64,000 nucleotides of DNA from Spirochaetaceae bacterium (GCA_007695055.1 REEM01000143.1:3812-67811), one strand, 5' to 3'; positions 6,789 to 64,000 are shown, numbered from the stretch's first letter. The notes: generated from the letters alone by a model not told the origin. A program made the numbers and translations.

Positions 6789-7011
6789 AATTACTCTCCT
6801 GCAGCTGGGCAAATGCTACTGGATACGCTACGCATTATCAAGGATAAAATGGAATACGAACCTAATTTCCCGGAAGCTGGGGCGACTATCGGCAAACACC
6901 TCCATACGCCTGACCTTGTCCGGGGACAAGGATACTCCACGCTTCCTTGATCTTTCCTTGTCCGCTTGGTATATACGAAGGACGCTAAGGACAGAGTAAA
7001 GGAAAGCACGA

Positions 7012-13072: not shown

Positions 13073-14386
13073 TTAGGTTTTATCGGCTTTCGGGAGAGCC
13101 ATTGTGCGATGCGTGAAGGGGCGTGCATTCGGGCCGCTGTAGTCAGACACAACGTGGCCCGCTCCGCGTAGGCGCCACTTATAGGTACACAGCCCCTCCA
13201 GCCCAACCGGCCCACGAGCATGCACCTTGACGGTGCTGATACCTACCTCGGCGCCGAGACCGTAACGGAAACCGTCCGCAAAGCGGGTAGAGCAGTTCCA
13301 CATCACGCTTGCTGAGTCCACAAAGTCCATGAATTGCTCCGCAGTCTCGGCGTGAGTTGTCACAATGGCGTCTGTGTGCCCGGAGCCGTACTGGTTAATG
13401 TGAGCAACCGCAGCTTCAAGGTCATCGACCACCCGCACCGCAAGTATATAGTCCAGGTACTCAGTCTCCCAATCAACCTCGCTTGCATGTTCAATCCCGG
13501 GTAAATACTTCTGTGTGATCTTACAGCCACGGAGTCGCACACCCTGCTCGGAGAGTGCTGTCGCGAGCTCGGGAAGAAAACGATCCGCTATCTCAGCATG
13601 AACCAACAAGGTCTCTGCGGCATTGCATACCGCTACATACTGCGTCTTGGAGTCAGCTACTACTCTTAGGGCCATATCTATGTCAGCTGCGGCATCTACA
13701 AATACGTGACAGATCCCGTCGGCATGACCCAGCACGGGAATTCGCGTGTTGTCCATAATGTGTTTTACAAACTCATTGGATCCTCGCGGAATAATGAGGT
13801 CGATATCGTCGTCGAGGGCTAACATAGCTCCTACATCTTCACGTGTCTTGAGTAACCCTATCCAGCCCGTTGGCATGCCGCCGGACTCAGCCCCACGGCC
13901 GATGGCTGCTGCCAATGCCTTGTTCGTTTCGCGGGCCTCACTGCCCCCCTTAAGCAAAACCGCATTGCCGCTCTTGAGACAAAGACTTGCAATCTGCACC
14001 AGCGCATCCGGGCGGGACTCAAAGACCATACCAATAACTCCGATTGGACATCCGACTCGTTTGAGCACCAGACCTTCATCAAGCTCGCGGACTTCCTGAA
14101 CCAGACCTACCGGATCAGGCAGCGATATAACGCTGTGAATACCCCGAATAGTCTCGGCAAGCTTGGCCTCGTCAAAGCGCAAACGCTTGAGCAAGGGCGC
14201 AGACAACCCAGCTGCCTCAGCAGCCTCCATGTCATGGCGGTTCGCCGTCAGTATGGCCTTTTTTTCTGCCTCTAGCCGAGCAGCCAGCGCCTCCAAAGCC
14301 GCGTTCTTTCGTGACGTGGGCTCGGCCGCAAGCAGCCGTGACGCGCCTCGAGCGGCGGCCGCAACGGTACGGATATCATCACTCAT
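13073..14386 (-). CDS. proA: Gamma-glutamyl phosphate reductase
   Basis: Track ORF 13073..14572. The conserved start MSDDIRTVAAAARGASRLLA is at 14386, overlapping the aroG-type stop by 8 nt. Aldehyde dehydrogenase-type ProA motifs are present (HADGICHVFVD, VCNAAETLLVH). Confidence 0.92.
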   Translation of the reverse strand: MSDDIRTVAAAARGASRLLAAEPTSRKNAALEALAARLEAEKKAILTANRHDMEAAEAAGLSAPLLKRLRFDEAKLAETIRGIHSVISLPDPVGLVQEVRELDEGLVLKRVGCPIGVIGMVFESRPDALVQIASLCLKSGNAVLLKGGSEARETNKALAAAIGRGAESGGMPTGWIGLLKTREDVGAMLALDDDIDLIIPRGSNEFVKHIMDNTRIPVLGHADGICHVFVDAAADIDMALRVVADSKTQYVAVCNAAETLLVHAEIADRFLPELATALSEQGVRLRGCKITQKYLPGIEHASEVDWETEYLDYILAVRVVDDLEAAVAHINQYGSGHTDAIVTTHAETAEQFMDFVDSASVMWNCSTRFADGFRYGLGAEVGISTVKVHARGPVGLEGLCTYKWRLRGAGHVVSDYSGPNARPFTHRTMALPKADKT

Positions 14387-15443
14387 GCTGCCCTCCTTCA
14401 CCCTTCGCAAGCACCGAATGAACAGCGTGAAGCAGAGCTTCTGTTTCCTCCCATCCAATACAGCCGTCGGTAATTGAAACGCCGTACTCGAGTGTCTCGG
14501 GATCTTCAAGCTTCTGTGAACCGGGGTTGATATTGCTCTCAAGCATAAAGCCGATGATTCCCGAGCTGCCACCAGCCCGCTGTTCGACTACATCTTGAAG
14601 AACCTCGCTTTGGCGCCGATAGTCCTTACCACTGTTCGCATGGCTGCAATCTACCATCACAACCGGCGGGAGTTTCGCCGCTCTCAACTCTTCACCTGCC
14701 GCAGCGATCTCGGCGGCTCCGTAATTTGGTCCCTTGCGACCACCGCGTAAAATAACATGTCCGGCCGGGTTTCCGCGGGTAGATAGAATACTGGTGAGCC
14801 CTTTCTGATCAATTCCAATAAAGCTCTGAGGATGCATAGCGGCCGAGAAGGCGTTAATTGCGTTCTCTACACTCCCGTCAGTACCGTTTTTGAACCCAAC
14901 GGGCATGGACAGTCCGCTTGCCATATCACGGTGCGTCTGTGACTCGGTGGTGCGTGCCCCTATTGAGGCCCATGAAACAAGATCGTCCAGAAACTGCGGA
15001 ACAATTGGGTCGAGCATCTCACTGCCAGCCGGTAGCCCCATACTGGTAATCTCAATAAGAATGGAGCGTGCCAAACGCAGTCCGGCCTGTATGTCCTTGC
15101 GTCCGTCAAGGGTAGGATCAATAACTAAGCCTCGCCAGCCGAGTCGTGTTCGCGGCTTTTCAAAATACACGCGCATAACAATGTACAACTGATCCTGCAG
15201 CTTCTCGCTGAGGGCCTTGAGGCGGCGGGCATAATCAAATGCTGCCTCAGGGTCGTAAATTGAGCACGGCCCCACCAAGGCAAGCATGCGTGAGTCCTCG
15301 CCACGGAGTATGCGCTCAATCACATTACGACTCTCAGTTACCGTTCGCGCACTCGCATCGGGTTGGGGATACTCTTGCTTCAGCACCTCCGGCGGTACGA
15401 GCGGTGTGGCGGATACAATGCGAAGATCGCTGTTTCGGGTCAT
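14379..15443 (-). CDS. 3-deoxy-7-phosphoheptulonate (DAHP) synthase, class I
   Basis: 354 aa. LALVGPCSIYDPEAAFDYARRL, YFEKPRT..GWRG, MVDCSHANS, the AroF/G/H family. Confidence 0.9.
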   Translation of the reverse strand: MTRNSDLRIVSATPLVPPEVLKQEYPQPDASARTVTESRNVIERILRGEDSRMLALVGPCSIYDPEAAFDYARRLKALSEKLQDQLYIVMRVYFEKPRTRLGWRGLVIDPTLDGRKDIQAGLRLARSILIEITSMGLPAGSEMLDPIVPQFLDDLVSWASIGARTTESQTHRDMASGLSMPVGFKNGTDGSVENAINAFSAAMHPQSFIGIDQKGLTSILSTRGNPAGHVILRGGRKGPNYGAAEIAAAGEELRAAKLPPVVMVDCSHANSGKDYRRQSEVLQDVVEQRAGGSSGIIGFMLESNINPGSQKLEDPETLEYGVSITDGCIGWEETEALLHAVHSVLAKGEGGQHE

Positions 15444-15681: not shown

Positions 15682-16827
15682 CTAGGTCGCCAAGGCAGCC
15701 GCCGAGTAGGTGATGGCCCCCAACTGGGTAATCTGATTGTCAACCAGAACAATCTCAGCGCCAGAATGAAGGGCCTCAATCACGGCAGTATTGATAAGGT
15801 TCTCACTCTGTTTGGCCTCCATGCCGTCGGCTAGGTGCACCAGTCCGGTTGCCGGGTCATAGGAACCGCGGACTTCCTCGTTGGGATTCACAAACAGGGC
15901 TGCCACATGCCCACCGGTGAGGGCAGGCAGTACGGTGTGAACACTCTCAGTTTTGGACTTGGCGCCATGATAGCGATCAAGCGCCCCGGATTGGGCCGCC
16001 TTGAGGCGAGTCTGCATGAGTTCCCAGCCGCGACTGATAATATCCTCAAGCCGAATGGTAAAGGGGTCAATATGGATGGCTGGCTCTACAACATTTCGGT
16101 ACTGATTCTTCCGCTGATAATGCCCAACTACCTTTGGCGCTCCCATGAGAACCAGCGGCACCTGATGCTTTTCTAACCATGGTGTTACTTCGGCCTCTAC
16201 CGCGCTGACAAATCTGTCCACAAAACTGCGCCGATCATCTTTGCCTGTGCCATGGCCATGAGTAATCTGACCCTGCCCTCCGTAGCCTGCGGAATGCTGT
16301 TGTAAGGACTTCTCAAAGTGGTCAAAGCGTAGCACATAAGCCAGGTCCTCCGGCAAGCCAGGCAGTTCGATCAGCTCGGTGCTGAAGCGATTGGAATGAT
16401 AGAGTCCGGCCCCACCGAGTGACAGGGTTAAGACAGCGTACTCCATGTTTCGAATGACCGGGTCTAATAAGGGTAGAATTGACATGCGCTCCCCAACCTC
16501 AACCTGCAGCTTACAGGAGATCGGCAGCTCAATGCGTTCGTAACCCTCGCTGTTCACAAACAAGCTCATACTCCCCAGTTGATGCAGCATAACCGAGTCG
16601 TCTTCCCCCAGCTCAACAACCGGCCGAAGGAGCTTGTGCACCTCTGCCTGTTCGAGTCCATGGGCAAGGAGTTTTCGTTCTGCGCTGTGCATAGCATTGC
16701 GCAACTGCACACGATTTTTCTGGAGCGGCTCACCAACGCGCTCCATGGGAAGATGAAAGGAAACTTGAGGGAACCCTTGAGACGCCCCTATGCGCCGTAA
16801 GTCACTCCGTGTAAGTTTCGCTGTCAT
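15682..16827 (-). CDS. Hypothetical protein, bacterial aeRF1-like (baeRF-family) candidate
   Basis: 381 aa, AAGGAGG before the ATG. The N-terminal pattern LTRSDLRRI...VSFHLPMERVGEPLQKNRVQLRNAMHSAERKLLAHGL...SMSLFVNSEGYERIELPI matches my memory of the baeRF3/7-type families. I ran no search. Confidence 0.45.
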   Translation of the reverse strand: MTAKLTRSDLRRIGASQGFPQVSFHLPMERVGEPLQKNRVQLRNAMHSAERKLLAHGLEQAEVHKLLRPVVELGEDDSVMLHQLGSMSLFVNSEGYERIELPISCKLQVEVGERMSILPLLDPVIRNMEYAVLTLSLGGAGLYHSNRFSTELIELPGLPEDLAYVLRFDHFEKSLQQHSAGYGGQGQITHGHGTGKDDRRSFVDRFVSAVEAEVTPWLEKHQVPLVLMGAPKVVGHYQRKNQYRNVVEPAIHIDPFTIRLEDIISRGWELMQTRLKAAQSGALDRYHGAKSKTESVHTVLPALTGGHVAALFVNPNEEVRGSYDPATGLVHLADGMEAKQSENLINTAVIEALHSGAEIVLVDNQITQLGAITYSAAALAT

Positions 16828-16902: not shown

Positions 16903-18111
16903 TCAAGCCAATGCCGAGCGGTCAAGCGCGGCAACGAGCACGTCCGGGGTGGACACAAACTCACATCGTGCACCGGTTTCATAAACACGGCGCCGAAGAT
17001 CCTTATCACTGGTTACGAACACCGTTGAGACCTCACCTCCTAAAGACAGTGCCGCCTCCACCATCGGGAGATCCGACTCGGTGTCGCCACAAACCAAAAT
17101 ACGTTTACCGGACAGGTGCAGCTCCAGTTCTTGTACCAAGAACCGCAAGCCGTCTCCTTTGGTAAAATGGCTCAGCTCACCGCCATTGCCTTGCTCACCA
17201 TCTACCTCACCATCACTCGTGGGAATGAGTTCAAGGTCCTTCCCCGTATCCTCAACACGGATGTGGTGCCCCGCATTTCTCATGTCAGAGACAATCCTGT
17301 GTACGGCCTCAAACAAGCGTTGTGAGTCGTGTGCCGGAATTGATCCAAAGACATCTTGATACGAAAGCGTTGTCTCACCCAGCTTCTTCTGAAAGCCCGA
17401 GCCAATCTGCGTGAAGACGTGGTTCTCCGGATGCTGCAGGAGTTCCTCGACCCTTGCATTGAGGTTGTCCATGGCTTCTGCCACCCGCGCTGGAAGAGGA
17501 CGGGATACTCTCTGCCCCTCAAAACTGCAGTACTCGCCCCCTTTTGAGCCAGCGAGCAGAAACAGGGGTTCGGGCATCACGCAGAGTTCGCGTATGCCTG
17601 TTTCCATAAGCGGTGCAGCGGTAAGGATTACCGGGGCTTGCCGGACGGTCCTTCCGAACCGGGACAGATAGACCGCGTTGTAGGCGGACTGAACCGAGGA
17701 TCGGTAACGCCCACAGTAATTATTGACGGTGCCGTCACGGTCGGTGAAGAAAGCATCATAGGGCTCAGAACCTATGAAGTCGCAGACCAGTTGAAGTTCT
17801 TCTCCGAAACCGGTGTGAATCTCTGAAAGGTACTGAAGAAACAGGGGTTCGCCGTGCTCAAAAAACAGAATGTCTTTCTGCAGTTCACTGCTTTCGTAGT
17901 TGTCTTTCACGAGAACAGACCGGCCCTGGTCATCCTTTAGATGCAGCACCCCTTCTTGATCGCGGGGCGCATTGCTTATGGTGGCTGCAATGCGTTTGAG
18001 AAACTCAAGATGAGTCGGTTGTACCAATTTCTTAAGGTAAGAGGCGGCCATGTCACGCCGAATGATGCGGCTTTCATCCATGAGCTGATAGAACTCCGCG
18101 ACTCGTTCCAC
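16903..18111 (-). CDS. HAD-IIB phosphatase, trehalose-6-phosphate-phosphatase-like, with an extra N-terminal domain
   Basis: 402 aa, GTG start after AGGAGA. HAD motif I FFTDRDGTV, a KGDG segment, and motif IV VCGDTESDLPM. It is divergent from the GH65 fusion gene. Confidence 0.6.
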   Translation of the reverse strand: MERVAEFYQLMDESRIIRRDMAASYLKKLVQPTHLEFLKRIAATISNAPRDQEGVLHLKDDQGRSVLVKDNYESSELQKDILFFEHGEPLFLQYLSEIHTGFGEELQLVCDFIGSEPYDAFFTDRDGTVNNYCGRYRSSVQSAYNAVYLSRFGRTVRQAPVILTAAPLMETGIRELCVMPEPLFLLAGSKGGEYCSFEGQRVSRPLPARVAEAMDNLNARVEELLQHPENHVFTQIGSGFQKKLGETTLSYQDVFGSIPAHDSQRLFEAVHRIVSDMRNAGHHIRVEDTGKDLELIPTSDGEVDGEQGNGGELSHFTKGDGLRFLVQELELHLSGKRILVCGDTESDLPMVEAALSLGGEVSTVFVTSDKDLRRRVYETGARCEFVSTPDVLVAALDRSALA

Positions 18112-18237
18112 TGCGTCTCCTGTGCTTGGTGTCGACCTTCTTTCAGGTAGAACTTACAAATGCTCGGCCGTCAAGGAAAGCCCCTATTGGACAGTCTCCC
18201 GACGGTCTCAGTATGTTTAAGGTCGGAAGGAGATGAA

Positions 18238-21200
18238 ATGGAGTGCAAAGGAGCCGTTTTTGATCTGGATGGCGTGATTGCAGCAACCGACGAGCTGCAT
18301 TTCGCTGCTTGGAAACAGACCTTTGAAGAGGTGTTGCATAACCATTCGCGCCAGGGGCAGGTGCGTGAGTTCACCTACGATGAGGACTACAAGCCGCTTG
18401 TTGACGACAGACCCCGCTACCAGGGCGTCAAAGCCTTTCTCGAGTCACGGGACATTAACCTACCCTTTGGCTCCCCTTCCGATCCTCCCGAACACTCGAC
18501 TATCTGCGGAATTGGCAATAGAAAAAACATTACCTTCCGGAAACTCGTGCGTGATGAGGGAGTGAAACTCTACGACTCCACCTTGGCCTTTATCCACCTC
18601 CTCCATGAACGTGGGGTGAAGGTGGGAGTAGCCTCGTTTAGCAAGAATAGCCGCTACATACTCCAGGAGACCGGCCTATCCCACCTGTTTGAAGCAGTTG
18701 TGGAAGGTGTGGCGAGTTCCGAAATGGGGCTTGGGGCCAAGCCCAACCCCGACATCTATTTGCTTGCCGCCGAACGGCTTGGTCTGGATCCCTACGACTG
18801 CATAATGGTGGAGGACTCAGACTCAGGGGTTGAGGCTGGCAAGAACGGAAACTATGGTCTTGTTCTGGGCATAGCCCATACCGCCTCGGCTCAGAGTCTG
18901 TATTCGCGCGGCGCGGATATAGTCGTAGCCGACATGTCCGAGTTGTCCTTGGAAAACCTTGACATATGGTTTGCCGACACCCGACACAAAGAGGCGTGGT
19001 CGCTCAGGTACTACGGCTTCAACCCATCCGAGGAGCGACTACGAGAGGCCTTGACCACCGTCGGCAACGGGTATTTTGGTACCCGTGGAGCGTATGAAGG
19101 GGAAGGGATACGGGGAAACACGCACTACCCGGGCACCTACATTGCAGGGCTGTTCAACCGCTTAGGCTCCGAGGTCCACGGCAAGACAATTTACAACAAC
19201 GACTTCGTGAACTGCCCAAACTGGCTGGCAATTGAGCTGCGTGTAGAGAACGGTACACCACTGAGGCCCTTGGATTGTGAGATTCTTGACTACACGCAAC
19301 ACCTCGACATCCGCAATGCAGTGCTGCTCCGTGAACTCACCCTCCGTGACAGAGCTGGACATATCACGACAATTCGCAGTCGGAGAATAGCCAGCATGGA
19401 TCAGGTGCACATAGGTGCCATTGAGTACACCATAACCCCGCAAAACTACTCCGGCACGGTAACTTTGAGGTCACGTCTGGACGGTTCGGTGTTTAACTAC
19501 GGTGTACAGCGATATCGTGAGCTCAACAGCAAACACCTTGAGCCAATTGAGTCCGGCGAGGTAGCCGCTGCAAAGGTAGCCGCTCGCAAGGAGTCCGGAG
19601 ATGCCAGCGTGGATGCTGGGCAAGCGCCGGACAACCAGGTGTACCTGCATGTTCGAACCACTCAATCTCACATAAAGATCTGTATGAACTCTATATCGCG
19701 CTTCACTCATGACAATGAGCGGTTTTTTCCGGACAGGCAGGTCACCACCGAGCCGGGTCTGGTTACCGAGCTGTTCACTCTGGAGCTTGAGCAAGGCCAC
19801 AGCTACACCTACGAGAAGACGATGGGCCTGTTCACATCTGCCGCTTGGGACTCAGATGCCCCTGAGCAGGCCGCACGTGAAGTCATAGACGCTGTTGCGC
19901 CTTTTGAGCTGCTGCTGGAGCGCCATATAGCGGTCTGGACCGAGTACTGGAACCACGCCGACTTTGTGATTGAAGGTGACCGTTTTGCACAGAAGGCGAT
20001 ACGCCTGCATGCCTATCATCTGCTGACAACAGCCAACCCCAAGAGCACCTTTGTCGACTGGGGGCTTCCTGCGCGGGGCCTGCACGGCGAGGCGTACCGC
20101 GGACATATCTTCTGGGACGAGCTCTTCATTTCGCCGTTCTACAACCTGCATTTCCCGGTGGTGACCCGCAACCACCTTATGTACCGCTATCGTCGCCTCG
20201 AGGCGGCACGACGGATTGCTCAAGAGGAACAGTTCTCAGGCGCCTTGTATCCCTGGCAGTCGGCCGACGACGGGAGTAGAGACTCCCAAACACTGCACTA
20301 CAACCCGAACAGCGGTGAATGGGACCGCGACCTGACCTTTCTACAGCGGCATATCAATATCGCGGTTGCTTACAATATCTGGGAGTACTTCTACACCACA
20401 AATGATGAAGAGTTCATGAACAGCTACGGTTTAGAGATGCTCTTAGAGATTGCCCGCTTCTGGGCCGACATAGCCGAATTTGAGAAGCAGGATGGGCGCT
20501 ATCACATTCGCAAGGTTGTAGGGCCTGATGAGTTTCACACCCAGTACCCCGAAAGCGAGGACGGCGGTCTGGACGACAATGCATACACCAATATCATGAC
20601 CGCCTGGCTCCTGCACAAAACGGTAGCCACCTACAAACATCGACCTGAAGCTGTCCAACAGGACATGCGCACGCGGTTGAGCTTTGAAGAGCGTGAGCTG
20701 GAGTTGTGGGACGACATCGTCCATAAAATGTATGTTCCAATCCGCGAGGACGGTCTCATTGAGCAGTTTGCCGGATGGATGGATCTGGATGAGCTGAACT
20801 GGAACGAGTACCGCACAAAGTACGGCAATATCCGACGTCTGGACCGCATTCTCAAAGCAGAGGGAGTGTCACCCAACCGCTACAAGGCTATTAAACAGGC
20901 CGATGTTCTCCAGTGTTTCTCCATGCTGTCACCCGGACAGGTCAGCAACATACTAGGCCTCATGGGCTATGAAACCGGAGAGCCGCGACAGTTGCTCGAA
21001 ACGAACTACGACTACTATACCGCACGGACGAGTCATGGCAGCACCCTGAGTTACGTGGTGCACTCCTCAATATCGAACTATCTTGCAACGCATCGGCAAG
21101 ATAAGTGGAACTGGTTCCTGGAAGCCTTGAGGAGTGACATGTACGACACCCAGGGTGGCACTACCATGGAAGGCATTCACTGCGGGGTAATGGCTGGCAC

Positions 21201-21438
21201 CATTGAGATTCTCTTCAAGGGTTTCGCCGGGGTCAACCTGTACAAGGACAAGATCGAACTGAACCCACATCTACCAGGCTCCTGGCGCAAGCTTTCATTC
21301 AAAATTACGCATCGTGGCACTACCTTAGTCCTGGATATTCTACCAGACAAGATCTATGCGACTCGCTTGATTGACGGGCGAGAGGAACCCATGGGCTGCA
21401 CCGATGACGGAAGCTGCTACACGATCTCACTTCGTTGA
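18238..21438 (+). CDS. Beta-phosphoglucomutase (HAD) :: GH65 alpha-glucoside phosphorylase fusion protein
   Basis: Track ORF 18160..21438. ATG 18238 follows AAGGAG. The N-terminus GAVFDLDGVIAATDELHFAAWKQTF...VEDSDSGVEAG is beta-PGM-like. The remainder is GH65 (HGEAYRGHIFWDELFISPFY with the catalytic Glu context, YPWQSADDG). Confidence 0.8.
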   Translation: MECKGAVFDLDGVIAATDELHFAAWKQTFEEVLHNHSRQGQVREFTYDEDYKPLVDDRPRYQGVKAFLESRDINLPFGSPSDPPEHSTICGIGNRKNITFRKLVRDEGVKLYDSTLAFIHLLHERGVKVGVASFSKNSRYILQETGLSHLFEAVVEGVASSEMGLGAKPNPDIYLLAAERLGLDPYDCIMVEDSDSGVEAGKNGNYGLVLGIAHTASAQSLYSRGADIVVADMSELSLENLDIWFADTRHKEAWSLRYYGFNPSEERLREALTTVGNGYFGTRGAYEGEGIRGNTHYPGTYIAGLFNRLGSEVHGKTIYNNDFVNCPNWLAIELRVENGTPLRPLDCEILDYTQHLDIRNAVLLRELTLRDRAGHITTIRSRRIASMDQVHIGAIEYTITPQNYSGTVTLRSRLDGSVFNYGVQRYRELNSKHLEPIESGEVAAAKVAARKESGDASVDAGQAPDNQVYLHVRTTQSHIKICMNSISRFTHDNERFFPDRQVTTEPGLVTELFTLELEQGHSYTYEKTMGLFTSAAWDSDAPEQAAREVIDAVAPFELLLERHIAVWTEYWNHADFVIEGDRFAQKAIRLHAYHLLTTANPKSTFVDWGLPARGLHGEAYRGHIFWDELFISPFYNLHFPVVTRNHLMYRYRRLEAARRIAQEEQFSGALYPWQSADDGSRDSQTLHYNPNSGEWDRDLTFLQRHINIAVAYNIWEYFYTTNDEEFMNSYGLEMLLEIARFWADIAEFEKQDGRYHIRKVVGPDEFHTQYPESEDGGLDDNAYTNIMTAWLLHKTVATYKHRPEAVQQDMRTRLSFEERELELWDDIVHKMYVPIREDGLIEQFAGWMDLDELNWNEYRTKYGNIRRLDRILKAEGVSPNRYKAIKQADVLQCFSMLSPGQVSNILGLMGYETGEPRQLLETNYDYYTARTSHGSTLSYVVHSSISNYLATHRQDKWNWFLEALRSDMYDTQGGTTMEGIHCGVMAGTIEILFKGFAGVNLYKDKIELNPHLPGSWRKLSFKITHRGTTLVLDILPDKIYATRLIDGREEPMGCTDDGSCYTISLR

Positions 21439-28049: not shown

Positions 28050-29244
28050 AGGTGTCGATTGCGATCTGTAGTTCTTCATTGGTTGGTTCAACCACAATCG
28101 CCGTAGGCGAGTAGTCCATAGAGATTATCCCTTCTCGCGGCCCGTTCTCAAGGTTCTTGCGATAATCCATGACAATTCCCAGGTTCTCAAGGCGGTTGCA
28201 GATTCTCTCTCTCATGCGGGCCCCGTACTGGCCTATGCCCCCGGTGAACACAAGAATATCCACCTTCACAATATTGGCGGCATAGGCCCCAATGAACTTG
28301 CGAATGCGGTAAGCGTACACATCAAGCGCCTCCATGGCGTTTCTGTCTCCCCGCTCGGCCGCGTCCTCAAGGTCCCGCAAGTCGTTGGAGATACCCGATA
28401 GACCAAGCAGACCACTTTGTTTGTTGAGCATCTCGTTCAGCTGCTCCGCGGTGTAGCCCCGTTCAAGCAGGAAGAAAATTATCGCAGGGTCAATGTCACC
28501 GCTGCGAGTTCCCATCATCAATCCTTCAAGCGGAGTAAAACCCATGGAGGTGTCTATAGAACGCCCATTGCGGATAGCTGTAATTGAGGCCCCGTTGCCA
28601 AGATGGCAACTAATGACGTTGGTGTTCTCGGAGGAGCGTTTCAGGTACTTGACCGCCTGCGACGCCACATAACGGTGACTCGTTCCATGGAAGCCATACC
28701 GTCGAATTTTGTACTTGTCGTAGAGCTCGCGTGGCAAACCATAGAGGTACGCAGCCGGAGTCAGGGTCTGGTGGAAGGCTGTGTCAAAGACCGCTACCTG
28801 TGGCACCTGTGGCAGCCGCTGCTGTGCTCCGAGTATCCCGGTCAGATTGACTGGATTATGCAGGGGAGCAAGTTCTATGTTCTTCTCAATTGCAGCAACA
28901 ACTGCGTCGTCTATTATTACCGACTCGGCGTAGTTCTCCCCGCCGTGTACCACACGGTGCCCAACGCCCTTGATCTCCTCTATACCCTCGACCACGCCGT
29001 TGTGTTCGTCCAGCAACGCAGCTACCATGAGCTCCATTGCACGCTCGTGATCGGGAATGCTCTCCTCGCGGCTATACTTTCCGTTAATGCTCACCTGAGT
29101 TATCTTGCCGTTCTTCTCCCCAATCCGTTCAATGCTTCCGCGCGCAAGACTGTCGCGGCTTGGCATATCGTAGACTTCGTACTTGAGCGAGGAGCTCCCA
29201 CAGTTGATCACAAGGATCGGTGCTCCACTTTGTTGTTTTCGCAT
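28012..29244 (-). CDS. ackA: Acetate kinase
   Basis: 410 aa. ILVINCGSSSLKYEVYDM, HRVVHGG, FDTAFHQT, GFHGTSH. Confidence 0.95.
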   Translation of the reverse strand: MRKQQSGAPILVINCGSSSLKYEVYDMPSRDSLARGSIERIGEKNGKITQVSINGKYSREESIPDHERAMELMVAALLDEHNGVVEGIEEIKGVGHRVVHGGENYAESVIIDDAVVAAIEKNIELAPLHNPVNLTGILGAQQRLPQVPQVAVFDTAFHQTLTPAAYLYGLPRELYDKYKIRRYGFHGTSHRYVASQAVKYLKRSSENTNVISCHLGNGASITAIRNGRSIDTSMGFTPLEGLMMGTRSGDIDPAIIFFLLERGYTAEQLNEMLNKQSGLLGLSGISNDLRDLEDAAERGDRNAMEALDVYAYRIRKFIGAYAANIVKVDILVFTGGIGQYGARMRERICNRLENLGIVMDYRKNLENGPREGIISMDYSPTAIVVEPTNEELQIAIDTYELISAPGARTA

Positions 29245-29268
29245 AAGGTTACTCCTAACTCAGTTGCT

Positions 29269-29847
29269 CTACGGCAACTCTATGCCAAGTTCCTCGGCCA
29301 GTCGAATATGAGCCAGCGCGATGTTGTAATGGGCTTCTGCCAGATCCGGGTCAAGGTCAAGCGCTACCCGGAACTCAACAATTGCCTGCCTATGATCTTC
29401 CAGTCGATACAGGGTTGTAGCCAGGTTGTACCGCGCCGACACATCCTCAGCATCTATCGCTACCGCCCGGGAAAAGTCCTGCTCGGCCGCCACAAAGTCT
29501 TCAAGCAGGAAATGAGCGTTGCCGCGGTTGTAGTACGCGCCAAAATGGCCGTCACTCAGTTCAAGAGTTCTGGAGAAGTCGGTGATTGCGTCCTCAAAGC
29601 GCTCAAGATCGTACGCGACCACACCTCGGTTATACACCAACTCCGCCATGTCCGGCTCAAGCTCCAATGCCTGGGAATAAGCCTCGTAGGCCTCAACCAG
29701 ACGCCCGACCTCGTAAGCCGACTCGGCGGAATCAATGAGTTCTTCGAACTCGTCCGCAAACAGGCTTGGAGTCCCCAGCACAACGAAAGCCAGACAAAAG
29801 GCCAGGAAGACCGCAGGTCTGTACGGCTTTATTGTTCGTTTCGGCAT
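29269..29847 (-). CDS. Secreted TPR-repeat protein
   Basis: Track ORF 29269..29970. The start at 29847 gives MPKRTIKPYRPAVFLAFCLAFVVLGTPSLFA, a signal peptide, followed by several TPR units (AYYNRGNAHF, ARYNLATTLY, AHYNIALAHI). Confidence 0.75.
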   Translation of the reverse strand: MPKRTIKPYRPAVFLAFCLAFVVLGTPSLFADEFEELIDSAESAYEVGRLVEAYEAYSQALELEPDMAELVYNRGVVAYDLERFEDAITDFSRTLELSDGHFGAYYNRGNAHFLLEDFVAAEQDFSRAVAIDAEDVSARYNLATTLYRLEDHRQAIVEFRVALDLDPDLAEAHYNIALAHIRLAEELGIELP

Positions 29848-29999
29848 AAATTCCCCCTTTATGTCACTGTTAAGGTAGTACCATCTTCTCTCCAGGTAAA
29901 GTCCCACCCGGCGGATGCTGGCAATGTGGTAGTGCAATGTGGTAGTACAAAGCGGCCAACTTGTATGCATTCAGGCACGTGTGCTACGCTGAGAAGGTA

Positions 30000-31091
30000 A
30001 TGCCGTCCCATGTAGCACATCTGATTTTTGCTGAGCAGGTACGCGACGCCCTCCCCAGCCACCTCCAACCAAGAATGACCGCTGCGAGCTATCCCTTTTT
30101 CGTCTTGGGCGCTCAGGGGCCAGACCTCTTTTACCACAATCGCCGTCGCAAACCCTCGGGTCTCGAGTATGGGGCTCGCCTCCATAGGTATGGCTACGGT
30201 ACGGCTGCTGCTGCCATGTTGAGCTATCTCCTTGAACACAGCCGCCGGAACGTGAATCTTGAAGCCTACCTGTTTGGTTTCATCACCCATGCCTTCCTTG
30301 ATCGAGCGGTTCACCCATACATTAACTACTTCGCGGGCTGGTTTGATCCAAAACGTGAAGAGACCCTTCGGTGGCGGGGAGCCCATGCGTATTTCGAGCG
30401 CCTGGTCGATGTAGTCATTCTGCGTCGATATAGGAACTGCGGCTTCGAGGCCTACGACTTTTTCTCCCGAGCTGACGCTGGCGAGGAAGCTCCCCGGCAG
30501 CTCGTAGAGCTGCTTGCCTACGGACTCAAACAGGCCATACCTCGCGCCCCCAAGGATGAACACCTCCACACACGCATAGAGCACGCCTACCTCGATGCCC
30601 GTGGGTTTTATCAGTACACCAACCGAACACTCGAGCAGTATCTAGCCGAGGAGCTTCGGCACCCAACGAACATGACTCCTGCCGAGCTGCGACGGTCGGC
30701 CTTGCTGCACCCCGCGCATCCACCGACCGAGCTGGACCCGGCAAACGAGTCACGTCGGCCGTGGTTGCATCCGTGTTCCTCCGAGCCTTGGTACAGTTCC
30801 ACGCTTTGGGAACTTATGGATCAGGCACAACACAACGCACTGCCAGCTGCCACATGCATGGCGAGCGCATTTGTTGAACAGAACGCAACGCCTGCTCGCC
30901 GGGGACACAGCGCGACAAGCGCCGAAGCAGCCTTATCTGAACTCATTGGAGACATGAATCTCTCGGATGGACGCCCCGGATCTCGGCCGTGTCCAAAACG
31001 CTTCAGTGAACCTCTGCCCCTCATGGAGCAGTTAGAGAGCTACATTAACGCCGTGACCAACGATCTGATATCGAGTCGGCAAGCAGATTAA
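30000..31091 (+). CDS. Putative zinc-dependent phospholipase C-like metallohydrolase
   Basis: Track ORF 29961..31091. ATG at 30000 (MPSHVAHLIFAEQV...LGAQGPDLFYH...HAFLDRAVHPYINY). His-rich motifs resemble PF00882-like bacterial proteins. The assignment is tentative. Confidence 0.45.
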   Translation: MPSHVAHLIFAEQVRDALPSHLQPRMTAASYPFFVLGAQGPDLFYHNRRRKPSGLEYGARLHRYGYGTAAAAMLSYLLEHSRRNVNLEAYLFGFITHAFLDRAVHPYINYFAGWFDPKREETLRWRGAHAYFERLVDVVILRRYRNCGFEAYDFFSRADAGEEAPRQLVELLAYGLKQAIPRAPKDEHLHTRIEHAYLDARGFYQYTNRTLEQYLAEELRHPTNMTPAELRRSALLHPAHPPTELDPANESRRPWLHPCSSEPWYSSTLWELMDQAQHNALPAATCMASAFVEQNATPARRGHSATSAEAALSELIGDMNLSDGRPGSRPCPKRFSEPLPLMEQLESYINAVTNDLISSRQAD

Positions 31092-36833: not shown

Positions 36834-38651
36834 GTGCAAACTAATCACAGTTTCCATATACCAGTCTTAGGAATAGGATTTTCGGTTGATACGCCCGTCA
36901 AGGTGGCAAAGTTCGGAATTACCTCGGTTATCTCGCTTGTTGACGACGAACTGGCCGAGGAGCTACGGGCTTACTACCTCAAGGAGCGTGGAGAGACTTA
37001 CGAACCCATTGACAAGTCCTACGACAATCCGCGCGCAGCGCGCTTCACGGCTTACCTTAACCTGGTTAACACCATGGTTCAGGAGAAGACCGAACAACTG
37101 CGACAAGCGGAGTTTGAACCTGGTTCCGAGATTACACGGTACTTTGAGTACCTACCGAGCGACTCACCTCTAGGTCAGCTCTACCAAGACATGATAGCCG
37201 CCAGCACCGCCGAGGAACGTGACAAGCTCCAGGCCGAGCTGCGTGATGCGGTACGGCCGGGTGAGGTTGAGACCAACATTATGGTCAAGGTCGACAACGA
37301 TCGCTACCGCGACGGGGAACAACTACCGCCGGAGTACGCAGACGCAATGTCGGCCTTGCAAGGCTTTGCGGAAAGCGAGCTTGAGTCGGGTGTGGTTTTA
37401 TCGGCTGGCTTCAACCGCCGCCTTGCAAAACATATTGAGAACTTCGCCGACTTTCATGCCGACGCAACAGGAAAATTCCGCAAGAAGATCATTCTCAAGG
37501 TGAGTGATTTCCGCTCAGCACAGACACAAGCCAAAATGTTTGCCCGGAGTGGCCTCTGGATATCGGAGTTCCGCATTGAGTCAGGCCTCAACTGCGGTGG
37601 CCATACCTTTGCCACCGACGGAATCCTGCTTGGGCCAATCCTTGAAGATTTCAAAACACGCCGTGAAGAACTTCTGGAGTCTACCTACGAGGTTTACCGC
37701 ACCGCGGTGAGCAAACGCACCGGTTCGGAACCGGAACGCCCAAGTTTCCGTGTAACGGTTCAGGGTGGAGTCGGCACCGCCCTTGAGCATAGTTTTCTCA
37801 TGGATAACTATGAGATAGACGCCGTTGGTTGGGGATCCCCGTTCCTGCTGGTGCCGGAAGCAGTAAATGTCGACGACGATACGCTCAACAAGTTAGCTCT
37901 GGCAGGGGCCGAGGATATCGTTTCAAGCGGTGCGTCTCCTCTGGGCGTCCGATTCAGCAATCTCATGAACTCAGCATCGGAGTTGTACAAGCGCCGTCTT
38001 TCTCGTGACGGCACGCCCGGTAGCGCCTGCCCTAAGGGTTATCTCAAATTCAATACCGAGTTCACCGATCGCGCAATCTGTGTAGCCTCCAACGCATACC
38101 AAAAGCGGAAAATTGCCGAGTTGGACGAGCTTGGCCTTGAGAGCTCCGAGAGAGAACGGCGCTACAATGAGATTGTGGAACGAGCATGCATCTGCCGTGA
38201 CCTATCCGGATCGGTAGAAATTCTGTACGGCACAGGCCGCTACGGCAAGGACGCGACGACTGCAGTCTGTCCGGGACCCAACCTTGCATTCTTCCCGCGT
38301 GCTGCGAAACTCCAGGAAATGATTGACCATATCTACGGTCGGCTCGACTTACTCAATGGTATTGATCGTCCTCATATCTTTATAAACGAGTTGAAGCTGT
38401 ATGTGGCACACCTTGCCGAGGAGCTTGCCGAGGCAATGCGATCTGGCAGTGAGGCTGGCACAGAGGCCTTCAGAAGCTATCGTGACAATCTTTTGACCGG
38501 CATTGGGTATTATCTGGGGCTCATGAGTACTCTTGGCGAGGAGTATCGTCGTTGGAAAGACCGAGTTCCGAGCGAGCTACTCAAGCTCAAGGAACAAATT
38601 GAAACGATCATGGCCGTGTTGCCGGAAACTGCCGAGGGAAACAAAGGATAG
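36834..38651 (+). CDS. Conserved hypothetical protein (605 aa), function unknown
   Basis: GTG start 8 nt after AAGGAG. N-terminus FHIPVLGIGFSVDTPVKVAKFGITSVISLVDD, central ESGLNCGGHTF, and Cys-containing C-terminal half. I cannot name the family from memory. Confidence 0.6.
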   Translation: MQTNHSFHIPVLGIGFSVDTPVKVAKFGITSVISLVDDELAEELRAYYLKERGETYEPIDKSYDNPRAARFTAYLNLVNTMVQEKTEQLRQAEFEPGSEITRYFEYLPSDSPLGQLYQDMIAASTAEERDKLQAELRDAVRPGEVETNIMVKVDNDRYRDGEQLPPEYADAMSALQGFAESELESGVVLSAGFNRRLAKHIENFADFHADATGKFRKKIILKVSDFRSAQTQAKMFARSGLWISEFRIESGLNCGGHTFATDGILLGPILEDFKTRREELLESTYEVYRTAVSKRTGSEPERPSFRVTVQGGVGTALEHSFLMDNYEIDAVGWGSPFLLVPEAVNVDDDTLNKLALAGAEDIVSSGASPLGVRFSNLMNSASELYKRRLSRDGTPGSACPKGYLKFNTEFTDRAICVASNAYQKRKIAELDELGLESSERERRYNEIVERACICRDLSGSVEILYGTGRYGKDATTAVCPGPNLAFFPRAAKLQEMIDHIYGRLDLLNGIDRPHIFINELKLYVAHLAEELAEAMRSGSEAGTEAFRSYRDNLLTGIGYYLGLMSTLGEEYRRWKDRVPSELLKLKEQIETIMAVLPETAEGNKG

Positions 38652-60534: not shown

Positions 60535-60650
60535 GGACTGCTCCTCGCCTAGGATAATAGCGGGCATTCCCTTGGAACATCAAGCGCAAGCGTGGTACAG
60601 TACGACCTACATTTGTCGGTCGGCGACCGACAGTTGGAGGTAATTGCACT

Positions 60651-63600
60651 GTGAAACCCTCAGACAATGACGATATCGACCCGAGTCTCACTTCAGATGC
60701 TGCTCGGAAACTCACTATACATCTCTCTCCGGCAGAGCTTATAAGGCTCTACACAACTATGGTTACCGCGCGCGAAATGGACCTGCTTGAGCAGAGTTAT
60801 ACCGGACGCGGAGAGGCATTCTTTCATGTCTCCGGTGCAGGGCATGAAGGCACCGCGGTCCTTGCTGAGCACCTTGGGCCACAGGACTGGCTCCACTGCC
60901 ACTACCGTGACAAAGCCCTTATGCTCGCACGCGGACTGACGCCCCGGATGTTCTTTCTTTCGCTCTTTAACAAAGACGAGTCGCATTCGCGTGGCCGACA
61001 GATGAACGCCCATATGAGCGCCCCGGACTTGAAGGTGCTCTCCCTTGTTGGCCCGGTAGGCAATAGCGCATTGCATGCAGTTGGTGTCGCCGAGGTCGTA
61101 AAAGACCAGACCGGTGCCCCAGTTGTACTCTGCGGTCTAGGTGACGGCATGACCCAGGAAAGCGAGGTGCTGGAAGCCATAGGCCATGCGGTGCGCAATG
61201 AGCTGCCTGTTTTGTTCGTTGTACAAGACAACGCCTTTGCAATATCGACCCAGACCAAGGGGCAGACCTTTTACAGCATGCCACAGGGCCGTGCCGAACA
61301 GTTCTACGGCATTCCTATTGAGTACCTCGACGGGCGCCAACCACACCAGTGTTATGACGGCTTTGGACGCATCTGCGGCGAGATGCGCCGAGATCGCGCG
61401 CCGCGGATTGTGGTGTTTGAAGTAGACCGGCTTTCCAACCACACCAACGCCGACGATCAGCGGGTGTACCGTAGCCCAGATGAAATTGCGCTGGTGAATG
61501 AGAGCGGCGACCCAATTATTCATTTCCAGAAGTACCTGATAGAGCGCGGAATAGACCGGGAGCTACTGTACCGCATACCAGATGAGATCCGCGCCGAGCT
61601 GGCCCCCATTGCCGAGGAGGCATTCCGGAGCGCCGAGCCTCGTCCGTTTTTGGCAGCATCCGCGCCACTTCCGCCTCATGTGGGCCCGCAGGCCCCGGAG
61701 TACCGTGGCGACATGAAGGCGGGGGGCTCGAGCGAGGGTAAGAAGCCGGTCACCATGCTTGAAGCAATTCGGGGCGTGCTTGGGGAGCGCATGGCCGCCG
61801 ACGAACGCGTGCATCTCTTTGGAGAGGATCTTGAGGATCCCAAGGGCGATGTATTTGGTGTCACCAAGGGACTTACGACCCGCTTTCCCGGCAGGGTGCG
61901 CAACTCTCCCTTGTCGGAGAGCCTCATAGTTGGTGAGTCCATTGGTGAGGCGCTTGCCGGTCGCAGGCCGGTTGCCTTTCTCCAGTTTGCCGACTTCCTT
62001 CCCATTGCGTACAACCAGATTGTGTCCGAGCTCGGTAGCATGTACTGGCGGAGCGACGGAGGCTGGCAGGCGCCGGTTATTGTGATGATAACCTGCGGCG
62101 GCTACAAACCAGGGCTGGGGCCGTTCCACGCCTCAAGTCTTGAGTCCATAGCAACCCATACCCCCGGGATTGACGTTGTAATGCCGAGCACGGCTGGCGA
62201 TGCCGCAGGTCTGCTGAACGCGGCATTCGAGTCGGGGCGCCCTACCTTGTTCTTCTATCCCAAGACCTGCTTGAACGACCGTGACAACGGCACCTCACCC
62301 GACCTGGAGAAACACCTCGTACCTCTCGGTCGGGCCCGTACGGTCCAGTCTGGAGACGACATAAGCTTTGTCTGCTACGGAAACACCGTAGCCCTGTGCC
62401 TACGGGCCGCCGCCGCACTGGCGTCGGTTGGGGTCGGATCCGATATCATTGATCTACGTTCGCTCATGCCGTGGGATGAGGCGGCGGTGCTTGAGTCGGT
62501 GCGCCGCACCCGCCGGGTTATTGTAACCCACGAGGATAACCACAGCGCCGGGTTCGGCGCCGAGGTGCTGGCAACCCTGGCGGAGAAGGCTGGCGTTGCC
62601 TTTAGCTCGCGGCGAGTCACCAGGCCAGACACCTATGTCCCCTGCAACTTTCCAAACCAACTTGAAGTACTCCCCTCTTACCGCCGAATCCTTGAAACCG
62701 CGGTGGAGATGCTGGGCGGAACCCTGGAGTGGGAGGCACCGATCAAGGCCGAGGCTGGAATCCACCTTGTGGAGGCAATTGGCTCCAGCCCCTCGGATGA
62801 GTCGGTCACGGTGGTTGAATGGAAGGTAAAGCCGGGAGAGGAGATAGGCTCAGGCGACATTCTGGCCGAGCTTGAGGCCGACAAGGCCGCCATTGAGCTC
62901 AAGGCCCAGGTGGGCGGAACCTTTGAGGAGGTACTGGTACCCGAGGGTGAGCTCGTGAAGGTTGGGGCGGTTCTGGCTAAGGTGAGAGTGAGTGGTGCGA
63001 GCGGCGCGGACCGCGAACACTACAAGCAAATTACTCGTGAGGATCCTGGCACGCCCGTTATCAGCGGCATCGCGGGCGGGCTGCGTGGAGCGAGCGAGGC
63101 TGTGGCCGGTGGGGCAGCCATGAGCTCGGCGGTGAGTGAGGCCGCGGTCGCTGGCAGCACCGGGACGGTGGCCGCGCACGGCAGCATTGGAATAGTCGAT
63201 GTAGTTGGAGCACGAGGCTCACGTGTTGTGAGCAACGAGGAAATTGCACAGATGTGTCCAGACTGGACTCCGGACGATATTCTCAAGCGCACCGGTATTC
63301 ACAGCCGGCCGTGGGTGGCTGAAGGTGAAACCGCTGTCAGCCTGGCAGTCAGAGCTGCGCGGACTCTGTTTGAGCGCAACGGAATGAGCTTTGCGGATAT
63401 AGATCTCCTGCTTTGCACAACCGGTACCCCGGCCCAGATCACACCGTCCACCGCAACGCTTATTCATCATGAACTGGCGGCGGGGCGCACAGACCTGACA
63501 GCACCAGCCTATGATCTTTCGGCGGCTTGTTCAGGTTACCTCTATGCGCTCCAGGTGGCCTACGACTATCTTAGTAACAGGCCCAGGGATCGTGTTCTCC

Positions 63601-64000
63601 TCATTACTACCGAGGTGCTTTCGCCCATGATCAACACGGCTGACCCAGGCACCGCCCCGATATTTGCAGATGCGGCCACGGCCACCCTACTCACCGGGGC
63701 TGCCGGGGCGGGCTCAGACTTGGGGGCTGGGGCTGCCGGGGGTGCCGGGGCCGGGAACACCGGAGCTGCGGCCGCCGGGGCGGGCAGCCCTGCCCAGCAC
63801 GCGGGTACTATCCGTCAACGCCTCCGAGTCAAACGCCCGGTACTTGCGGCGCTTGGTGAAAGCGGCGAGACCTTGCGGGTGCCTACTTTTGCACCTGGTG
63901 CCTGTATAACCATGGACGGGCCGACCGTATTCGTGGAAGCTGTTAAGGACATGATTCTCATGTTGGAGCGTGCGTGTGCCGAGTCAGGAATAACGGCGAA
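60651..64000 (+). CDS. Multidomain fusion: 2-oxoacid dehydrogenase E1-alpha + E1-beta + lipoyl-type domain + KAS III (FabH-like) domain; 3' end beyond the window
   Basis: Absent from the track because it has no in-window stop. The frame is open from the TAG at 60558-60560. The first start is GTG 60651, 10 nt after GGAGG. Hand translation gives 1116 codons with no stop. E1-alpha: aa 20-335 (GRQMNAH, GLGDG...VVQDN). E1-beta: aa 365-690 (LFGEDLEDPKGDVFGVTKGL, NSPLSESLIVG). Lipoyl: aa 703-778 (ELEADKAAIEL, K745 at 62883-62885). KAS III: from aa 844 (DLSAACSGYLYAL, Cys960 at 63528-63530). Confidence 0.8.
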   Translation, partial: MKPSDNDDIDPSLTSDAARKLTIHLSPAELIRLYTTMVTAREMDLLEQSYTGRGEAFFHVSGAGHEGTAVLAEHLGPQDWLHCHYRDKALMLARGLTPRMFFLSLFNKDESHSRGRQMNAHMSAPDLKVLSLVGPVGNSALHAVGVAEVVKDQTGAPVVLCGLGDGMTQESEVLEAIGHAVRNELPVLFVVQDNAFAISTQTKGQTFYSMPQGRAEQFYGIPIEYLDGRQPHQCYDGFGRICGEMRRDRAPRIVVFEVDRLSNHTNADDQRVYRSPDEIALVNESGDPIIHFQKYLIERGIDRELLYRIPDEIRAELAPIAEEAFRSAEPRPFLAASAPLPPHVGPQAPEYRGDMKAGGSSEGKKPVTMLEAIRGVLGERMAADERVHLFGEDLEDPKGDVFGVTKGLTTRFPGRVRNSPLSESLIVGESIGEALAGRRPVAFLQFADFLPIAYNQIVSELGSMYWRSDGGWQAPVIVMITCGGYKPGLGPFHASSLESIATHTPGIDVVMPSTAGDAAGLLNAAFESGRPTLFFYPKTCLNDRDNGTSPDLEKHLVPLGRARTVQSGDDISFVCYGNTVALCLRAAAALASVGVGSDIIDLRSLMPWDEAAVLESVRRTRRVIVTHEDNHSAGFGAEVLATLAEKAGVAFSSRRVTRPDTYVPCNFPNQLEVLPSYRRILETAVEMLGGTLEWEAPIKAEAGIHLVEAIGSSPSDESVTVVEWKVKPGEEIGSGDILAELEADKAAIELKAQVGGTFEEVLVPEGELVKVGAVLAKVRVSGASGADREHYKQITREDPGTPVISGIAGGLRGASEAVAGGAAMSSAVSEAAVAGSTGTVAAHGSIGIVDVVGARGSRVVSNEEIAQMCPDWTPDDILKRTGIHSRPWVAEGETAVSLAVRAARTLFERNGMSFADIDLLLCTTGTPAQITPSTATLIHHELAAGRTDLTAPAYDLSAACSGYLYALQVAYDYLSNRPRDRVLLITTEVLSPMINTADPGTAPIFADAATATLLTGAAGAGSDLGAGAAGGAGAGNTGAAAAGAGSPAQHAGTIRQRLRVKRPVLAALGESGETLRVPTFAPGACITMDGPTVFVEAVKDMILMLERACAESGITA

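Follow-up and report, generated by a model that had tools for sequence, protein, structure and literature searches.

In Bacillus, Listeria, and Staphylococcus, a branched 2-oxoacid is converted into a branched 3-oxoacyl-acyl carrier protein (ACP) by the Bkd E1/E2/E3 complex together with FabH. This pathway employs a branched-chain 2-oxoacid dehydrogenase (BCKDH)-type E1, a lipoyl arm, a multimeric E2 scaffold with an E2 core and an E3-binding domain, an acyl-coenzyme A (CoA) intermediate, and a malonyl-ACP-using 3-oxoacyl-ACP synthase III (KAS III). Here I describe a gene lying at the end of a 64,000-nucleotide stretch of DNA (the window) from a Spirochaetaceae bacterium (GCA_007695055.1 REEM01000143.1:3812-67811), whose single open reading frame (ORF) encodes E1-alpha, E1-beta, a lipoyl domain, and a KAS III domain one after another (Table 1). 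The fusion has in common with Bkd and FabH the BCKDH-type E1, the lipoyl arm, the malonyl-ACP-using type of KAS III, and the predicted overall conversion. In contrast, it lacks an E2 core, an E3-binding domain, and a multimeric E2 scaffold, carries all of its parts on one polypeptide, is predicted to skip the acyl-CoA intermediate, and has a KAS domain devoid of the Trp32/Arg151 CoA-adenine site. As far as sequence comparison can tell, it resembles Bkd and FabH compressed to one chain minus the E2 and CoA steps. I propose, with a probability of roughly 0.55, that the fusion is an E2-less module, complete in itself, that primes type II fatty acid synthesis or a related acyl-ACP synthesis.

A published account lists, as known ways in which bacteria initiate fatty acid synthesis, FabH with acyl-CoA, malonyl-ACP decarboxylase, and an FabB-type route (PMC10869286). 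Among natural-product enzymes, QncN/QncL/QncM (quinocarcin) and SclQ1-4 (scleric acid) combine E1-like thiamine diphosphate (ThDP), lipoyl, and E2 catalytic parts and transfer a C2 unit to an ACP (PMC6335953). The present fusion is similar in that E1-like modules are joined to a lipoyl domain and in that the acyl group on the arm would end on a carrier protein, not on free CoA. It differs from the Qnc and SclQ enzymes, which keep an E2-type acyltransferase domain, use a ketose phosphate donor, have no ketosynthase, and belong to secondary-metabolite clusters. Actinobacterial OdhA/KGD consists of E1o and an E2 catalytic domain, while the AcoC-type acetoin E2 consists of a lipoyl domain and an alpha/beta-hydrolase. 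These examples show that the modules can be re-fused and that a lipoyl arm can serve a non-classical catalytic domain; however, no condensing enzyme is joined to them and both still release acyl-CoA. A model that had read the window from the DNA alone (the original prediction) knew of no described case of a lipoyl arm and a KAS III in cis on an E1, and no description of this architecture was found in a search of the openly available full-text literature, in which one candidate paper proved unrelated. The fusion family is uncharacterised and widespread, and is made of known component types.

The translation from the GTG codon at 60651 is free of stop codons up to the window edge. This GTG is credible as the start codon because it is preceded by a GGAGG sequence, because the nearest in-frame upstream stop codon ends at 60560, and because the homologue P0002 (84% identical) begins with V-K at the equivalent position. 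A 100%-identical database protein, P0001 (1162 amino acid residues), is annotated as 'MAG: transketolase [Spirochaetaceae bacterium]'. Its NCBI model starts 35 codons downstream of the GTG, and the residues ahead of its ATG are conserved in other homologues; the full-length product is composed of these 35 N-terminal residues and the 1162 residues of P0001. The 81 C-terminal residues lying past the window end in P0001 include PHQAN and GNTS, which complete the Cys-His-Asn triad of the KAS domain. Since the window derives from a metagenome-assembled genome (MAG), it may be asked whether separate E1, lipoyl-protein, and fabH genes were joined by a sequencing or annotation error. Nothing was found in favour of this, and its chance is negligible. 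A single frame of about 1100-1190 residues is kept uninterrupted in 78 of 81 independently assembled loci, both complete chromosomes and an isolate, Spirochaeta thermophila DSM 6192 (P0117), being among them. Thus, a hidden frameshift or stop codon is effectively excluded, and the merged-gene explanation was rejected.

The E1-beta domains Transket_pyr and Transketolase_C scored 82.5 bits (cutoff 27) and 92.9 bits (cutoff 25.9), respectively. The nearest solved relative of both subunits is the branched-chain E1b of Thermus thermophilus (beta, 1um9_B, 2.9e-60; alpha, 1um9_A, 3e-33), and the alpha part matches human BCKDH alpha (1e-27) ahead of pyruvate dehydrogenase (PDH) alpha (7e-18). The NHTNADD loop aligns with PHSSADD of T. 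thermophilus and HHSTSDD of human BCKDH, and its His (H228 in P0001 numbering) is invariant in a 24-sequence family alignment. With the Pfam domains, the ThDP motif, and both His residues present, the module is, by its sequence, an E1 of the alpha/beta heterotetramer type. On the other hand, none of the named NCBIfam E1 equivalogs (PDH or BCKDH) was reached, the best scores being 205, 163, and 146-162 bits against cutoffs of 454, 321, and 411. Thus, this E1 is a divergent E1 lineage, and the substrate assignment comes solely from its similarity to 1um9 and human BCKDH.

The lipoyl domain was modelled by AlphaFold2 as an eight-strand barrel. Its E2-type N-terminal strand (GSSPSDESVTVVEW) is conserved, and NF011457, the model for AcoC-type acetoin E2, matches this part of the protein. 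A biotinyl domain was considered and rejected, because the EADKA motif is invariant (the biotin motif is MKM) and the N-terminal strand is of the E2 type. The domain is thus of the lipoyl type and is predicted to be lipoylated at K745. Indirect support for lipoylation is given by LplA-type lipoate ligase genes upstream of the fusion, on the same strand, in three loci of Verrucomicrobiota and Kiritimatiellia; in L074 and L078 the ligase gene is immediately adjacent, whereas in L075 the distance is about 2 kb. The segment between the lipoyl domain and the KAS domain is only about 65 residues in length and is mostly disordered in the model. Just after the lipoyl domain it contains a conserved motif that is modelled as a short beta-strand between disordered stretches and matches no known motif; this strand may serve to dock and position the arm.

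In a Pfam scan reporting at E<=0.01, neither 2-oxoacid_dh (PF00198, the E2 core with its DHRxxDG segment) nor E3_binding (PF02817) was matched in the fusion protein, and both families are missing from the precomputed Pfam lists of the best 120 homologues. The possibility that an E2 core or a peripheral subunit-binding domain is hidden in the linker was also rejected, since no hidden Markov model (HMM) matched and the linker is too short and disordered. The fusion is thus not an E2 dihydrolipoamide acyltransferase as far as its domains indicate.

The KAS III domain matches ACP_syn_III at residues 954-1021 (59.9 bits), and P0001 contains ACP_syn_III_C (PF08541). The best sequence matches in the PDB are bona fide FabHs (6a9n, 5.5e-43). 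Foldseek comparison with FabH structures gave target-normalised template-modelling scores of 0.81-0.91, about 0.9 for the top matches, while no solved structure covers more than one module of the AlphaFold2 model. Full-length P0001 lies marginally above the cutoff of NF006829 (249.5 vs 249 bits) and below that of TIGR00747 (207 vs 292 bits). The residues of the KAS domain were surveyed in 155 family members using E. coli FabH numbering. Cys112 is kept in all of them, His244 in 153, Asn274 in 154, and the ACP-docking Arg249 in 150, and the GGGF oxyanion loop is conserved in nearly all. Because these catalytic and docking residues are near-invariant, the KAS domain looks like a working, ACP-using condensing enzyme and not a relic. 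With FabH proper it shares the fold, the Cys-His-Asn triad, the oxyanion loop, Arg249, and the NF006829 match. It differs in scoring below the TIGR00747 cutoff, in not being a stand-alone enzyme, in having Asp or Glu at position 32, Pro, Ala, or Phe at position 151, Pro at position 210, and Thr at position 87, and in carrying a lineage-specific low-complexity insertion. E. coli FabH has Phe87; the FabH of Mycobacterium tuberculosis, which takes long acyl primers, has Thr at this position too. The insertion reaches its greatest length in this lineage; P0002 and P0003 have a shorter one, most relatives have none, and its DNA shows only a weak 9-bp tandem repeat.

The original prediction had given a single unbroken frame of 1116 codons from GTG 60651, the order of a BCKDH-like E1-alpha, an E1-beta, a lipoyl/biotinyl-type domain, an Ala/Gly/Ser linker, and a KAS III domain, the positions of K745 and Cys960, and the lack of an E2 acyltransferase core between the lipoyl and KAS III domains. 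All of these were reproduced by translation, Pfam, and structure modelling, with the domains in the same places and in the same order.

Table 1. Positions of the fusion gene, its modules, and its motifs, counted from the first nucleotide of the window.
Feature	Position	Strand	Remarks
Fusion gene	60651..64000	+	1116 codons inside the window, runs past the window edge; full product 1197 aa
Shine-Dalgarno-like GGAGG	60637..60641	+	9 nt 5′ of the GTG start; sequence inspection
E1-alpha module (Pfam E1_dh, residues 35-334)	60753..61652	+	118 bits vs cutoff 22
ThDP-binding motif GDG-X27-N, residues 164-194	61140..61232	+	sequence motif; invariant in the family
E1-alpha loop NHTNADD	61437..61457	+	its His falls, by alignment, on the T. 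thermophilus and human catalytic His
E1-beta module (Transket_pyr 366-541, Transketolase_C 560-672)	61746..62666	+	Pfam
E1-beta GPFHASS with invariant His	62118-62138	+	24-sequence family alignment
Lipoyl domain, residues ~705-780	62763..62990	+	Pfam Biotin_lipoyl 718-777, 56.3 bits vs 22.1
Predicted lipoyl-lysine K745 in EADKA	62883-62885 (codon)	+	Lys and EADKA invariant in the 24-sequence alignment
Post-lipoyl motif YKQITREDPGTPVISGI	63021..63071	+	family consensus K-P-x-T-R-E-x-P-G-x-P-x-I-x-G-I, strongly conserved
Ala/Gly/Ser-rich linker	63072..63182	+	length and sequence variable; predicted disordered, pLDDT (model confidence) below 50
KAS III (FabH-type) domain	63183..64000	+	truncated by the window end at residue 1116
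PDWTPDDILKRTGI	63258..63299	+	Asp at the FabH Trp32 position; Trp four residues before; Arg36 retained
Active-site Cys960	63528-63530 (codon)	+	triad His and Asn past the window, in P0001
Ala/Gly-rich low-complexity insertion, ~41 residues, KAS surface loop	63696..63818	+	homologue comparison; pLDDT below 50

In E. coli FabH, the adenine of CoA is stacked between Trp32 and Arg151. Neither residue is ever present in the 155 fusions; at position 32 there is Asp, Glu, or some other residue, and at position 151 there is Pro, Phe, Ala, Gly, or Tyr. In contrast, three canonical FabHs aligned with the KAS domain in the search for sequence matches keep both. A Trp is found at position 28 in 128 fusions and Arg36 in 129. 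The equivalent residues of M. tuberculosis FabH, W42 and R161, were picked for mutant structures according to the PDB titles of 2aj9 and 2ahb. A clean control with stand-alone FabHs was attempted for positions 32 and 151; however, the set of 300-370-residue proteins contained canonical FabHs alongside members of a 'P-E-W...K' KAS III class and fusion fragments or relatives, which weakened a first, stronger reading that the CoA site is lost. The stand-alone KAS III proteins fall into the canonical FabHs (W32, R36, R151, and R249), the 'P-E-W(28)...K' class, and a class with the fusion-like pattern. P0204 is a genuine stand-alone KAS III gene of the last class and is followed by an ACP gene. The loss of the adenine sandwich is thus suggestive of CoA independence but is not proof of it.

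More distant KAS III relatives with W28, D or E at position 32, and no R151 were also found in L087 (1447-2712) and L084 (18-1621), each directly followed by a small PP-binding gene. They suggest that Planctomycetota-like genomes contain a broader clade of KAS III-ACP pairs that has not been studied.

The reading frame, the domain order, the intact motifs, the lack of an E2 core, and the wide conservation were observed; from them I infer each chemical step, which substrate is used, and where the product goes, as follows. The fused E1 alpha-beta would decarboxylate a 2-oxoacid with ThDP and would reductively acylate the lipoyl-lysine K745 tethered at its own C-terminus. On its linker of about 65 residues, the acyl-dihydrolipoyl arm would then reach into the KAS III domain through its pantetheine tunnel and pass the acyl group to Cys960, a step that would stand in for both the E2 transfer to CoA and the loading of FabH with acyl-CoA. 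The KAS III domain would condense the acyl-enzyme with malonyl-ACP by means of its His and Asn, yielding a 3-oxoacyl-ACP, and a separately encoded dihydrolipoyl dehydrogenase (Lpd) would re-oxidise the dihydrolipoyl arm. The CoA-independent transfer from the lipoyl arm to the KAS Cys had been put forward in the original prediction. It is strengthened by the comparative data, namely the invariant catalytic and ACP-docking residues, the loss of the adenine sandwich, the ketoreductase (KR) and ACP domains of P0160 (see below), and the LplA, Lpd, and ACP neighbours in some loci; it still has the standing of a proposal, the Trp32/Arg151 loss being suggestive only.

Branched-chain 2-oxoacids from Val/Leu/Ile metabolism are likely to be the substrates, given the E1 similarity, Thr87, a neighbouring Leu/Val-type dehydrogenase, and the presence of iso-C15:0 in cultured halophilic relatives of the host clade (PMC4511686). 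The substrate may differ between phyla. The broader idea, that a ketosynthase receives its acyl group straight from a lipoyl arm and that CoA-independent initiation from 2-oxoacids is widespread across Spirochaetota, Planctomycetota, Verrucomicrobiota/Kiritimatiellia, and other phyla, stands in my view at even odds. This route would exist beside the known initiation routes and might be the main source of the iso/anteiso primers of those phyla.

Is the fusion a singleton? The original prediction was right in that the architecture is real and the ORF is not split, and the protein turned out to be a member of a large, generically annotated family. The best 120 database matches all have the same six-domain architecture (55-84% identity) under scattered names, such as 'beta-ketoacyl-ACP synthase 3', 'thiamine pyrophosphate-dependent enzyme', 'biotin/lipoyl-binding protein', 'transketolase', and '2-oxoisovalerate dehydrogenase E1 component'. 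In a scan with one genome per species, relatives that conserve the architecture were found in at least 574 genomes of at least eight phyla. The best 80 of these come from Spirochaetota, Pirellulaceae and other Planctomycetota, Verrucomicrobiota, Kiritimatiellia, Lentisphaerales, Armatimonadota, Sumerlaeota, Nitrospirales, a Xenococcus cyanobacterium, a betaproteobacterial MAG, and Marinobacter halodurans. When the lipoyl and KAS part was searched against 50%-identity cluster representatives, 93 clusters were obtained at E<=1e-30. The mean column identity of the 24-sequence alignment is 63%, which, together with the architecture kept in at least 574 genomes, indicates strong purifying selection across the whole polypeptide.

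The copy of M. halodurans YJ-S3-2 (L047) lies on an 11.8-kb contig, is 59% identical to the spirochaete protein, and is the sole gammaproteobacterial isolate among the matches listed. It could result from horizontal transfer or from a contaminant contig.

A variant of the family, P0160 (1942 residues; GCA_029777335.1, L083 10001-15829), has E1_dh, Transket_pyr, Transketolase_C, lipoyl, KAS III, KR, and PP-binding domains, followed by about 250 C-terminal residues without a Pfam match. As a Rosetta-stone relative, it amounts by its layout to a priming-plus-reduction module in one protein, in which whatever the KAS domain makes is linked with a carrier protein and a 3-keto reduction. P0186, a lipoyl-KAS ORF that is open to the contig edge and may be a fragment, has an 81-residue PP-binding gene 6 nt downstream. 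Short lipoyl-KAS proteins were considered as a split form of the fusion and rejected as probable fragments; P0121, P0130, and P0135 start inside Transketolase_C and P0186 lies at a contig edge. P0126 is the only short lipoyl-KAS protein with a non-E1 N-terminus, and it is likewise cut by a contig edge.

In the window, the fusion gene is divergent from an aconitase gene, and genes for seryl-tRNA synthetase, a NeuB-like protein, pyrroline-5-carboxylate reductase, RelA/SpoT, RF1, and PrmC lie nearby, with proline synthesis, glycolysis, and sugar genes farther off. No Lpd, LplA, ACP, or second FabH was detected by tblastn in the 64-kb window. The neighbours were also analysed by all-against-all clustering of 1128 ORFs from the 81 loci (+/-10 kb). 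A conserved operon partner was rejected, as only clade-level synteny was seen (aconitase in 32 loci, NeuB, and seryl-tRNA synthetase). Small ORFs 5′ of the gene in planctomycete loci were considered and rejected; they looked spurious and were not ACPs. A tblastn search of the 81 loci with E. coli ACP gave a single weak match. Lpd is encoded 8-10 kb away in seven loci, six from the Alkalispirochaeta clade or Spirochaetia and one betaproteobacterial. In L001, a classical short-chain dehydrogenase/reductase (SDR) of 292 residues (adh_short/KR; 13570-14448) starts on the stop codon of the fusion and is followed by an OmpA-domain protein, and the same SDR family lies directly 3′ of the fusion in 13 loci, L001 and 12 others. 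From the syntenic L001, the gene downstream of the fusion in the present genome is predicted to be this SDR, which could reduce the 3-oxo product. In a Xenococcus sp. MAG (L052 319-7657), the genes flanking the fusion encode a Glu/Leu/Phe/Val dehydrogenase, a second KAS III-like protein of divergent sequence, and a 409-residue protein without a Pfam match. This cluster adjoins relaxase- and integrase-like genes and may be mobile and specialised.

Could the fusion work with an E2 core encoded elsewhere? The E1-lipoyl part and a separate E2 core would then release acyl-CoA for loading onto the fused KAS III, and the fusion would merely co-localise the enzymes. Rearranged 2-oxoacid dehydrogenase fusions are indeed known, such as QncL with its E1-beta-like, lipoyl, and E2 catalytic parts (PMC6335953). 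The Arg36 kept in 129 of 155 fusions and the Trp28 near the tunnel mouth would also suit an enzyme that loads CoA esters. Actinobacterial OdhA is another rearranged fusion. I nevertheless consider this arrangement unlikely, because PF00198 is in none of the best 120 homologues, because no E2 core was found among the examined gene families that recur in the +/-10 kb loci (non-recurring neighbours were outside the E2-profile screen), and because both adenine-sandwich residues are gone from all fusions. Moreover, the lipoyl domain sits on flexible linkers between E1 and KAS, as would be expected if it shuttled between these two active sites. It is rather improbable that the KAS III-like domain is an acyltransferase in place of the E2 core, which would take over the acyl group carried by the lipoyl arm, hand it to CoA or holo-ACP, and give acyl-CoA or acyl-ACP as the product. 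Transfer-only KAS III-like enzymes, such as DpsC and CerJ, do occur in natural-product pathways, and DpsC-type matches, although weak, appeared in the KAS search. FabH catalysis begins with a thioester exchange, a half-reaction that could run from the lipoyl arm via Cys to another thiol, and the AcoC-type acetoin E2, whose model matches the lipoyl part, is a precedent for a non-canonical catalytic domain. However, His244, Asn274, and the GGGF loop are kept in nearly all 155 fusions, whereas the known transfer-only KAS III relatives usually alter the Cys-His-Asn triad; the nearest sequence and structure matches are true FabHs, and the KR appended in P0160 implies a 3-oxo product.

The priming chemistry may also be the proposed one and yet lead to a specialised lipid or polyketide-like product instead of bulk membrane fatty acids. 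The additional KR, ACP, and C-terminal domains of P0160, the dedicated small ACP gene adjoining some relatives, the Xenococcus locus with its second KAS III-like gene and mobile-element context, and the SDR overlapping the fusion stop codon in L001 and present in 12 other loci are consistent with such a product. In contrast, in the window and in most loci the gene stands by itself amid housekeeping genes (aconitase, seryl-tRNA synthetase, proline synthesis, and RelA/SpoT), no conserved biosynthetic cluster surrounds it in the 81 loci, and the family is broad and highly conserved, which makes a specialised role a minor possibility. As for the priming module itself, several observations weigh against it. 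No gene partner is conserved across phyla, and Lpd, LplA, and ACP neighbours occur in a minority of the 81 loci. The loss of Trp32 and Arg151 is only suggestive because it is common to a wider KAS III clade including stand-alone enzymes, and Trp28, one helical turn from position 32, might still bind a nucleotide. The fusion has no E3-binding domain, and re-oxidation would therefore rely on an undocked Lpd. The fatty acids of cultured Pirellulaceae are mostly straight-chain, and the substrate may be different, pyruvate for example, in some lineages.

If the priming module works as proposed, the lipoyl arm would gain a new type of client, a condensing enzyme instead of an acyltransferase, and fatty acid priming would skip the acyl-CoA pool entirely. 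Amino-acid-derived 2-oxoacid pools would feed directly into the membrane lipid composition in several large, little-studied phyla, many members of which are anaerobes in which lipoate dependence is not expected. It would also account for hundreds of inconsistently annotated proteins and provide a compact single-gene part for branched-chain fatty acid engineering.

Some other genes in the window were noted. Three ORFs of 316, 465, and 605 residues, at 5862-6812 (-), 28603-30000 (+), and 36834-38651 (+), respectively, have no Pfam match at E<=1e-5. An ORF at 15682-16827 (-) matches bacterial archaeo-eukaryotic release-factor-like families (baeRF family 7, 3e-27); it has a DAHP synthase gene on one side and a trehalose-6-phosphate-phosphatase-like gene on the other. 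At 16903-21438, a trehalose-6-phosphate-phosphatase-like gene is divergent from a gene for a 1092-residue fusion of an HAD hydrolase and a GH65 glycoside phosphorylase. This pair is probably a compatible-solute or disaccharide phosphorylase system.

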